A DNA stretch of 64,000 bases from Bacteroidota bacterium. GTDB taxonomy: Bacteria; Bacteroidota; Bacteroidia; Bacteroidales; PUMT01. Within the stretch, counting starts at the first letter, position 1; each line of letters starts with the position of its first letter. Below the pieces are notes generated by a model, which ran no database searches, was not told the origin of the DNA, and saw nothing but the letters and a program-made list of their open reading frames with translations. The stretch lies in assembly GCA_003551495.1 (NCBI GenBank), contig PUMT01000231.1, forward strand, positions 26,685 to 90,684. The letters run 5' to 3'. A program made the translations under genes and the position numbers. Positions 3,200 to 49,087 of the stretch are shown here, in pieces.

Positions 3200-3271
3200 T
3201 ACAGGAAATATCGTATTTGCAGAATTCGTTATAATCGAATATTTATTCTAAATATTTATTTTATTATTGTT

Positions 3272-3467
3272 GAAAGCCACATCAGCCTTCGGCAAACAAA
3301 ATGAGATGTACAAACATGGGGGTTTGACCTTTGGTCGATTTCAAATGTAAACAAATGCTCTTTGAGTTTCTTAATCAGATTTGAAATGCATACGACAGGA
3401 AGAAATGAACTTAATTGACATACTATAATAGCTCATAGAATATTAGTTTAATTAACCTTGTTTGTAC
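3272..3467 (+). repeat. Intergenic repeat element, copy A (about 196 nt; candidate ncRNA or regulatory module)
   Basis: It aligns without gaps to 16071-16266, with roughly 20 substitutions by eye. The core at 3312-3387 is identical to 16111-16186. It contains a 9-bp inverted repeat (ATTTCAAAT...ATTTGAAAT) and a GACC-TTT-GGTC mini-hairpin. Confidence 0.8.
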
Positions 3468-3478
3468 TTATGAATCGT

Positions 3479-15962: not shown

Positions 15963-16070
15963 TTACTGGTTCCTTGTGAAAGATGATTAAAGGCAATATA
16001 ATGAATATTCCTGCAATTATTAAAACTTAAACAAATGCGCATTATTATTGACTTGCCCGAATAGTTTTAA

Positions 16071-16266
16071 GAAAGCCCCATCAGCCTTCGGCAGACAAAA
16101 GGAGATGAAGAAACATGGGGGTTTGACCTTTGGTCGATTTCAAATGTAAACAAATGCTCTTTGAGTTTCTTAATCAGATTTGAAATTTATACGACACAAA
16201 GAAATGAACTTAATTGACATACTAAAATAACTCTTTGAATATTAGTTTAATTAACTTTGTTTGTAC
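16071..16266 (+). repeat. Intergenic repeat element, copy B (about 196 nt)
   Basis: This is the direct-orientation copy of 3272-3467, with its core at 16111-16186 identical to copy A. It lies in the 525-bp divergent region between the two radical SAM genes. Confidence 0.8.
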
Positions 16267-16487
16267 GAATGAACTAAAGTCCAAATTGGCCGTTTTAGTG
16301 CACAATTTTGACTGACAGGAGGAACCGCTTTGCTTTCCCATTAATTTTTTCATCCGTATGTGGCTGTTTTCGGATAAAAAAAATTCATGTACATTTGTTA
16401 TTTACAAGCATTTTATAGTAGTGAAGTCATAAAATTTTTCAATAAAACAAACCGTTAAAATGTATACACATATCAAAGCATGTAAGT

Positions 16488-48994: not shown

Positions 48995-49005
48995 GTAATT
49001 TAGTG

Positions 49006-49087
49006 TGCGGATGGAGGGACTCGAACCCCCACGCCGTGAGGCACCAGATCCTAAGTCTGGCGCGGCTACCAATTACGCCACATCCGC
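49006..49087 (-). tRNA. tRNA-Leu (anticodon UAG)
   Basis: The reverse complement reads GCGGATG...CCAGACTTAGGATCTGG...GGGGGTTCGAGTCCCTCCATCCGCA. It has a 7-bp acceptor stem, an anticodon loop CTTAGGA, a long variable arm and a T-loop GGTTCGAGTCC. CCA is not encoded. Confidence 0.9.

Follow-up and report, generated by a model that had tools for sequence, protein, structure and literature searches.

What does a short intergenic repeat do between two divergently transcribed radical SAM operons: does it code for peptides, regulate its neighbors, or has it arrived there for reasons of its own? The question is raised by a locus on contig PUMT01000231.1 of a Bacteroidota bacterium (order Bacteroidales), of which a stretch of 64,000 nucleotides, referred to here as the window, was analyzed. 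The repeat is present as copy A (3272–3467) and copy B (16071–16266), which are 92.9% identical across 196 nt without a gap, and copy B lies in a divergent spacer of 525 bp (15963–16487). An earlier, sequence-only reading had described both copies and this spacer, and all of its coordinates hold; it had also proposed mini open reading frames (mini-ORFs) on both strands and a regulatory role at an Fe-S/radical SAM locus. Our comparison with relatives makes it likely that copy B is instead a passenger, belonging to a modular mobile repeat of soda-lake Bacteroidales that is non-coding and non-autonomous. The window contains exactly two occurrences of the element's 30-nt core, where shuffles lead one to expect 0, and profile and short-word searches of the 64 kb returned no third copy.

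Limits and modules of the repeat family

Relatives were collected with a pattern scan (CATCAGC-N3-4-GGCARACAAAA) over one genome per species, which matched at least 116 stretches; the comparison loci fetched from relatives are designated by L-numbers (L001, L002, etc.). Among the matches listed, at least 55 are true relatives of the element, located in about 10 metagenome-assembled genomes (MAGs) of Bacteroidales from soda-lake sediment (CSSed, T1Sed, and similar), with at least 16 copies in MAG PWHJ01 and at least 14 in MAG SLPB01. Matches from other phyla, within the same set, lack any flanking feature and represent chance hits. As far as the scan shows, and for the matches listed, the family is confined to a haloalkaliphilic (soda-lake) Bacteroidales clade.

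The family has sharp limits, with ATGAA at the left junction, followed by a hairpin module (H), a variable body and a conserved right end that closes with a final ATGAA. An exact ATGAA forms the left pentamer of 38 out of 56 copies, and 44 of them fit nTGAA, compared with a background of 0.23% per position; copy B carries a degenerate version, AAGAA (16069–16073, + strand), and copy A has TTGAA (3270–3274). Module H (16074–16122, + strand) is framed by an outer stem (16074–16081 with 16115–16122, core CCCCAT/ATGGGG) and contains a stem-loop, CAGCC-TTC-GGCAG (16082–16094), and an A-rich loop with an internal ATGAA (16105–16109). Its family consensus reads (a)CCCnCAT, CAGCC-TTC-GGCAG, ACAAAAtaac-ATGAA-yAAAc(c), ATGnGGG(t)TCCAT. 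Next comes a nested hairpin module of 63 nt, S, which lies on the − strand (16123–16185), and then a type-1 variable body on the + strand (16186–16251; ...TATACGACACAAAGAAATGAACTTAATTGACATACTAAAATAACTCTTTGAATATTAG...) with 80%–85% identity to L010 and L112 of PWHJ01. Across the family the body measures 60–90 nt and falls into several mutually unrelated subtypes. The element is completed by the conserved right end, TAACTTTGTTTGTACGA together with the terminal ATGAA at 16269–16273 (16252–16273, + strand). The sequence-only reading had thus placed the element correctly and ended it too early at 16266, since family alignments carry the right end to this terminal pentamer. The same alignments place the terminal ATGAA of copy A at 3470–3474, and copy A as a whole (3270–3474, + strand) has the composite layout of copy B: H, reversed S (3324–3386), type-1 body and right end.

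A consensus of 25 distinct right ends shows TTG at −34 to −32 and T..TTT(A/G)TaCg at −12 to −2, directly followed by ATGAA; 19 of these ends close with an exact ATGAA, and the right end is conserved from one body subtype to the next. Terminal inverted repeats are absent: in no subtype does the left end (ACCCGCATCAGCC...) resemble the right end (...TTTGTACGT) read as its reverse complement. Elements range in length from 37 to 205 nt and occur singly, as minis, in tandem and nested. The mini units consist of about 31 nt plus ATGAA (37 nt) and were found at L002, L091, L030, L079, L095, L097, L070, and L120, while units in tandem (L101, L112, L016, L121) hold one ATGAA in common.

Variant minis with other small stem-loops and a like layout were seen at L112:280–420, L053:240–275, L034:3130–3166, L016:2330–2370, and in L121, where the variant lies downstream of a palindromic module. 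Two examples are CCCCAT-GTTAC-TGT-GTGAC-ACAAAAAGAC-ATGAA and TTCCCCAT-GATTC-TGAA-GACTC-ACAAAAAGAC-ATG. Such variants hint at covariation of the inner stem-loop, outside the reach of the search pattern.

The hairpins of H and S are maintained by compensatory change. In a family alignment of 32 sequences (A2), the outer stem of H is 91% paired, with columns 10 and 51 occupied by GC (14 sequences), CG (13), or UA (1), and its covariation score is reached by none of 500 shuffles and by no slid control. The pairing of CCCCAT (16076–16081) with ATGGGG (16115–16120) noted earlier is therefore present, and the covariation that was missing from the two window copies is found at the level of the family. 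The inner stem-loop CAGCC-TTC-GGCAG is fixed by the search pattern and is evidence in neither direction. Module S is bounded by a terminal inverted repeat, ATTTCAAAT/ATTTGAAAT, and contains a small hairpin, GACC-TTT-GGTC; its 8-bp terminal stem is 98% paired and has five pairs changed on both sides, a result matched by 0 of 500 shuffles. It is this stem that the sequence-only reading had recorded as an inverted repeat, and the compensatory changes lend support to this 9-bp repeat. Folding z-scores of single sequences range from −0.2 to −2 for both strands, whether folded as RNA or DNA, and are unremarkable and uninformative on their own. A strand call based on the A·C mismatch of the outer stem (G·U on the − strand) was dropped because nearly all copies have inherited the mismatch, so that they are not independent.

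About 20 copies of S were recovered with an nhmmer profile search, and they nest in both orientations. At L023, L026, L047, L078, L108, and L115, S sits within the H loop directly 3′ of the internal ATGAA and in the orientation of H, whereas in the window (3324–3386 in copy A), L072, and L047 it is reversed, that is, opposite to H, and lies past the 3′ arm of H. Read on its own strand, reversed S has a 5′ flank of ATGAA (L072), ATGCA (copy A), or ATAAA (copy B). Otherwise the 5′ flank of S is TGAA or TCAA, with GTCAA preceding S in tandem S–S arrays, and the 3′ end of S is GTCAA throughout.

The 3′ arm of H also carries a group II intron at six loci (L122:1380–3400 on the − strand, L013, L042, L048, L123, L125). 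It is inserted at an identical position, after ACATGGG and before GGTCCAT, runs from TAGCGCC to CCCGGA, encodes a reverse transcriptase in an ORF of 432 aa and matches Rfam RF02005 with 126 bits. The shared position implies that the repeat is a homing site of a group II intron. Introns of class IIC insert past terminator-like inverted repeats (PMC1702495), and the H-homing intron recalls them. The sequence following ACATGGG in L013, L042, and L048 had been a candidate for an autonomous parent element until a metagenome scan showed it to be this intron.

Precise insertion immediately 3′ of ATGAA

An empty and a filled site at the gene lnt show that insertion is precise and oriented: the element, which itself ends in ATGAA, enters directly 3′ of such a pentamer. 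The empty site, in L131 (an 87% aa relative), reads ...CGAAAAATAACGAAATGTT-ATGAA-AAACAGTACCAGATGG; in L021 the filled site reads CGAAAAATACCATAAATTA-ATGAA, then 137 nt ending in ...CAC-ATGAA, then TAACAGGACCAGATGG. The N-termini of the two Lnt proteins align (MKNSTRWMLAVSGG vs. MNNRTRWMLAVSGG). Automatic alignment had shifted the short left flank onto the A/T-rich right end of the element; compared directly, the left flanks are identical at 13 of 19 positions, including a 9-nt exact run, as opposed to 8 of 17 for the alternative placement. The pair thus implies insertion just 3′ of the ATGAA that contains the start codon, with regeneration of ATGAA. Because the element brings its own terminal ATGAA, insertion into an ATGAA start rebuilds the start codon, and by the same property insertion at ...A-TGA-A can spare a stop codon. 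At L070 and L078 the upstream gene has its stop codon in the TGA of the left (A/T)TGAA.

At the same junction in more distant relatives (L133:1490–1510 and L134:1490–1510), eamA and lnt overlap by ATGA, with bases common to stop and start. This junction has been opened by a variant mini in L131 (1427–1500) and by the full element in L021 (1–161), which suggests that junctions where stop and start overlap as ATGA(A) are favored landing sites.

Spacer lengths at the two window loci vary among relatives. Between the radical SAM operons the window has a spacer of 525 nt; its counterpart in L001 (an 80% aa relative with no match to H) has 217 nt, and that in L002 (PWHJ01, 68% aa identity) has 131 nt, with only a 37-nt mini, a stretch of about 40 nt similar to the element's left end. 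The spacers of L001 and L002 can be aligned only in their promoter-proximal 30 nt, so the exact insertion point of copy B is not mappable. The spacer between ybeY and mnmG is 455 nt long in the window; in two relatives with full synteny it has 169 and 142 nt and consists of the ybeY terminator and an A/T-rich stretch only, with no repeat modules. An all-versus-all blastn of the fetched loci for further empty and filled pairs returned only L043/L119 as syntenic, and this pair is uninformative owing to an extra gene.

Within a genome, copies are 74%–96% identical over 137 nt, with the 50 nt to each side unrelated; in SLPB01 such copies sit upstream of EEP, ABC, DUF3748, and SDF genes. Once module S is taken out, the window copies are 80%–85% identical to the type-1 copies of PWHJ01 (L010, L112), whereas adjacent coding DNA of the two genomes shows only 66%–72% identity. 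No copy was found by blastn in plasmid and phage collections or by the pattern scan in viral contigs, and a plasmid or phage vector is accordingly not indicated. Searches of Rfam 15 with the window element and nine family loci, at gathering and E-value thresholds, gave only chance-level matches (E > 2); with no model reaching its gathering threshold on the element, membership in a curated RNA family was rejected.

Two side observations concern these spacers. In L002 (2860–2912), the mini adjoins the AmmeMemoRadiSam radical SAM gene at a palindrome, TTCATGAA, which places ATGAA on both strands, as the start of the − strand gene and as a target on the + strand. Directly after the ATGAA of copy A, the window contains a further repeat module (3475 to about 3560) with a long palindrome, CCATGACGATATTTTCA...TGAAAATATTGTCATGG, that extends toward the ATG of mnmG (3585). 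This module is 92%–93% identical to copies in SLPB01 (L053, L115, L121), which end in ...TTTACTT-ATGAA. A Logan contig with an identical mnmG (L128) begins 40 nt upstream of the gene, approximately where the likeness to other copies of the module stops, as expected for a repeat that breaks assemblies.

We propose that the element would move as single-stranded DNA by means of an HUH/Y1-type enzyme supplied in trans (“peel-and-paste”), in the manner of IS200/IS605 PATEs or REP/RAYT. What points to this route is the combination of absent terminal inverted repeats, an adjacent motif equal to the terminal motif, compensated hairpins, nesting in both orientations and units of only 37 nt. Enrichment at the starts and ends of genes would then reflect which ATGAA sites tolerate insertion, with no function needed: insertions would persist where the ATG is restored or the TGA kept.

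Several points weigh against this account of copy B. There is a single exact empty/filled pair, whose left flank is limited to 19 nt by a contig end, the window holds only two copies in its 64 kb, and every comparison locus is a MAG or metagenome contig. No transposase was identified: a tblastn search with an IS200 TnpA sequence as query, which covered the window and fetched loci of about 1 Mb in all (8-kb stretches of the MAGs), gave no match. The right end has A/T palindromes only and no convincing second hairpin, which IS200/IS605 ends need. A 5-bp target duplication, or a site-specific recombination with ATGAA as its core, would account equally well for ATGAA at both sides, and orientation relative to the downstream gene is biased yet mixed (24 copies co-directional, 13 convergent).

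Coding, regulatory and mobility alternatives

Of the genes flanking copy B, the first two of the − strand operon match TIGR04337 (AmmeMemoRadiSam radical SAM enzyme; 308 bits against a cutoff of 220) and TIGR04336 (protein B). The + strand gene encodes a Radical_SAM protein. An exact-match look-up of the window's own radical SAM protein gave no entry. Its earlier label, “PflX-type”, is loosely supported: homologs are named “putative pyruvate formate lyase activating enzyme” by JGI, but NCBIfam gives no match. We refer to it as PflX-like. Elsewhere in the family the neighbors are diverse. The terminal ATG begins a long ORF in 12 copies, and in 9 of 10 such ORFs tested a Pfam domain starts within the first ~30 residues. 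The functions are unrelated and include a beta-lactamase fold, MFS, Lnt, ThuA, DUF3748, PAP2, endonuclease/exonuclease/phosphatase, an ABC ATPase, and an SDF symporter.

Comparison across the family removes two readings that are attractive at this locus, micro-proteins and a regulator specific to radical SAM genes. The mini-ORFs exist in the window as described, with 14 codons on the + strand (16105–16149, MKKHGGLTFGRFQM, in copy B; 3306–3350, MYKHGGLTFGRFQM, in copy A) and 16 codons on the − strand of both copies, and both are uninterrupted in A and B; this retention follows from 93% identity without indels. In the family, however, start, frame and stop are not conserved. The + strand mini-ORF has no ATG in 11 of 53 copies, is split by a 1-nt indel into two frames (MNKHGG... 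and MNKPCGFH...), and varies from 2 to 35 codons; its − strand counterpart spans 9, 9, 11, 16, 16, 29, 32, 49, and >77 codons in type-1 copies and has ACA in place of its ATG in L088. In the window both terminate within module S, which most family members lack. Indels, lost ATGs and shifting stops break both frames, the outcome that the sequence-only reading had itself named as fatal to the coding idea; neither mini-ORF codes, and it is extremely improbable that the element encodes one or two micro-proteins of 14 aa (+) and 16 aa (−). We also consider it very unlikely that the element acts as a cis-regulatory RNA (leader or riboswitch-like) or a trans-acting small RNA for the radical SAM/Fe-S locus. 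Such a role could draw on the location within a divergent control region, on the covariation of the stem and, in copy B, on a hairpin that encloses the ATG with AAAAGGAG before it. The comparative data largely refute it: genes downstream of the family members are functionally unrelated, syntenic radical SAM gene pairs lack the full element, and the architecture is modular, nested and tandem. A conserved pair of promoter and terminator is absent, a TACATTTG box on the − strand of S in the window becomes TGCATGTG in other S copies, and neither Rfam nor the folding z-scores given above lend support. These relatives show the element to be dispensable for the radical SAM locus. Copy B (16071–16273) just lengthens the divergent control region of the two operons; read-through transcripts may gain a hairpin from it, and its promoter-like right end may act toward the PflX-like gene. 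A generic cis effect on adjacent genes through either feature is possible.

A more serious rival is that the family is a mobile promoter or 5′-leader cassette under positive selection, driving leaderless or near-leaderless mRNAs of the adjoining genes, which we hold to be possible, if rather doubtful. At copy B it would provide a second promoter toward the PflX-like gene. Bacteroidetes promoters have a −33/−7 geometry with TAnnTTTG as the −7 consensus, and the right-end blocks resemble it, with TTG (−34 to −32) and T..TTT(A/G) (−12 to −6) at a fixed distance from the ATG across differing bodies and a predicted transcription start at the ATG or a few bases before it. At least nine genes of unrelated function truly begin at the terminal ATG, and in L011, L100, and L107 the upstream neighbor is divergent and so cannot supply read-through transcription. 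By sequence, the family also qualifies as “putative mobile promoters” in their operational sense (80% identity or more over at least 50 nt, upstream of non-homologous genes, one genome; PMC3488235). Against this, most subtypes match the −7 consensus imperfectly, the gene faced by a copy is convergent in 13 of 37 cases, several copies lie just past stop codons, and the conserved blocks could equally be transposition signals. In copy B itself the terminal ATG opens only ATG AAC TAA, with the start of the PflX-like gene 215 nt onward and a perfect TAnnTTTG (TACATTTG, 16391–16398) closer to that gene than the element is. A promoter and terminator scan found no intrinsic terminator; its sigma-70 promoter model is irrelevant for Bacteroidetes. 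Mobility could, on the other hand, be that of a classical MITE (a miniature transposable element with inverted repeats), with a DDE transposase as its mover that has a preference for ATGAA and leaves a 5-bp target-site duplication. The ATGAA on both sides, which would be the target direct repeat, a length below 300 bp, the lack of ORFs, the multiple copies and the insertion polymorphism would all suit a MITE. We nevertheless regard this as unlikely, as the ACCCGCATCAGCC... and ...TTTGTACGT ends are not inverted repeats of each other, units of 37 nt and strictly oriented tandem arrays are atypical, and the fetched loci contain no full-length insertion sequence with matching ends. Units of 37 nt would also be hard to bend as duplex circles, and taken together the features listed above fit single-strand peel-and-paste better.

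Relation to known repeats and further observations

Small non-autonomous intergenic repeats are a known class. What is unusual here, and well supported, is the identity of target motif and terminal motif, each being ATGAA, by which start codons regenerate. A fuller claim—that this is an undescribed element of single-strand type, 37–205 nt long, with ATGAA as both target and terminus, scarless at starts and TGA stops, stacking and nesting to build the immediate 5′ regions of many unrelated genes in soda-lake Bacteroidales, perhaps serving as a leaderless promoter and acting as an intron homing site—is conceivable and is put forward tentatively.

One close likeness is to the PATEs (palindrome-associated transposable elements) derived from IS200/IS605, which are moved by TnpA through peel-and-paste, have no terminal inverted repeats, are strand-specific, and have a strict adjacent motif of 4–5 nt at the left and an encoded motif at the 3′ end; they are likewise tiny and non-coding, with compensated hairpins and precise insertion without rearrangement of the flanks (PMC10055086; PMC7290912). 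The first of these motifs is called the TAM (transposon-adjacent) and the second the TEM (transposon-encoded; PMC10055086). In our family, the counterpart of the adjacent motif is ATGAA at the left junctions counted above and at lnt, and TGAA or TCAA ahead of S. The left end has a small stem-loop 8 nt from the junction and the covarying outer stem, the right end has A/T palindromes only, and S has one long hairpin and a small 3′ one. Unlike in PATEs, the adjacent and encoded motifs are the same, a clear right-end hairpin was not found, and no TnpA/TnpB partner or omega-RNA-like part was identified in the sequence covered. The ends show no similarity to those of known insertion sequences, ISfinder not being among the collections searched.

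REP/BIME elements pair with the RAYT transposase (TnpA_REP), whose gene is flanked by REPs, REPs being imperfect palindromes of 20–40 nt with a 5′ GTAG and occurring mostly as inverted pairs. The minis are of REP size and share with them a short conserved 5′ stretch joined to a small imperfect palindrome, an intergenic location in many copies and a frequent position past stop codons. They differ in having no GTAG head, in forming direct tandem arrays, in often abutting start codons and in belonging to a family with longer bodies.

BOX repeats are modular, with A, B, and C boxes, and the Correia and ERIC MITEs have inverted-repeat termini; such repeats can bear promoter parts at their termini, and their target is TA or none specific, with no start-codon pentanucleotide. 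The ends of bcr1 are inverted repeats. BOX of Streptococcus pneumoniae, Correia/CREE of Neisseria, and enterobacterial ERIC resemble the present family as hairpin-forming intergenic repeats near genes (PMC3488235). The bcr1–bcr3 elements of the Bacillus cereus group are lineage-restricted interspersed repeats of 100–400 bp with mobility tied to a junction pentanucleotide, TTTAT, and a mobilizing enzyme that is not known; lineage restriction and a junction pentanucleotide are shared with our family, whereas phylum, pentanucleotide and sequence differ, and start-codon regeneration is not described for bcr (PMC6542083, citing Okstad 2004 and Kristoffersen 2011). The putative mobile promoters of Matus-Garcia et al. 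(2012) are non-coding sequences of high similarity that lie directly upstream of genes without homology to one another in a single genome, and for many-copy families the authors suggest non-autonomous mobile elements (PMC3488235). They form an operational class without a set anatomy, whereas the limits, target motif and empty site of the present family are defined.

The family offers a clean natural example of a mobile repeat that targets a frequent start-codon context and restores the codon split by its insertion. It explains why identical upstream regions of about 130 nt lie flush with the ATG of unrelated genes, and offers a concrete mechanism for “promoter propagation”. Should an HUH enzyme with ATGAA specificity indeed be responsible, the enzyme and its minimal substrate of 37 nt would be of interest for single-strand transposition. 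The repeats also break MAG assemblies, with several contigs ending inside them, which matters for the binning and annotation of uncultured lineages.

Two minor features of the window complete the description. Copy B and the PflX-like gene are separated by a region with an inverted repeat, ATCCG...CGGAT (16352–16376), which has T-runs and A-runs at its sides and was not terminator-like on either strand in the terminator scan. The sole Rfam/ARAGORN feature of the window is a tRNA-Leu with anticodon TAG at 49005–49087 on the − strand.

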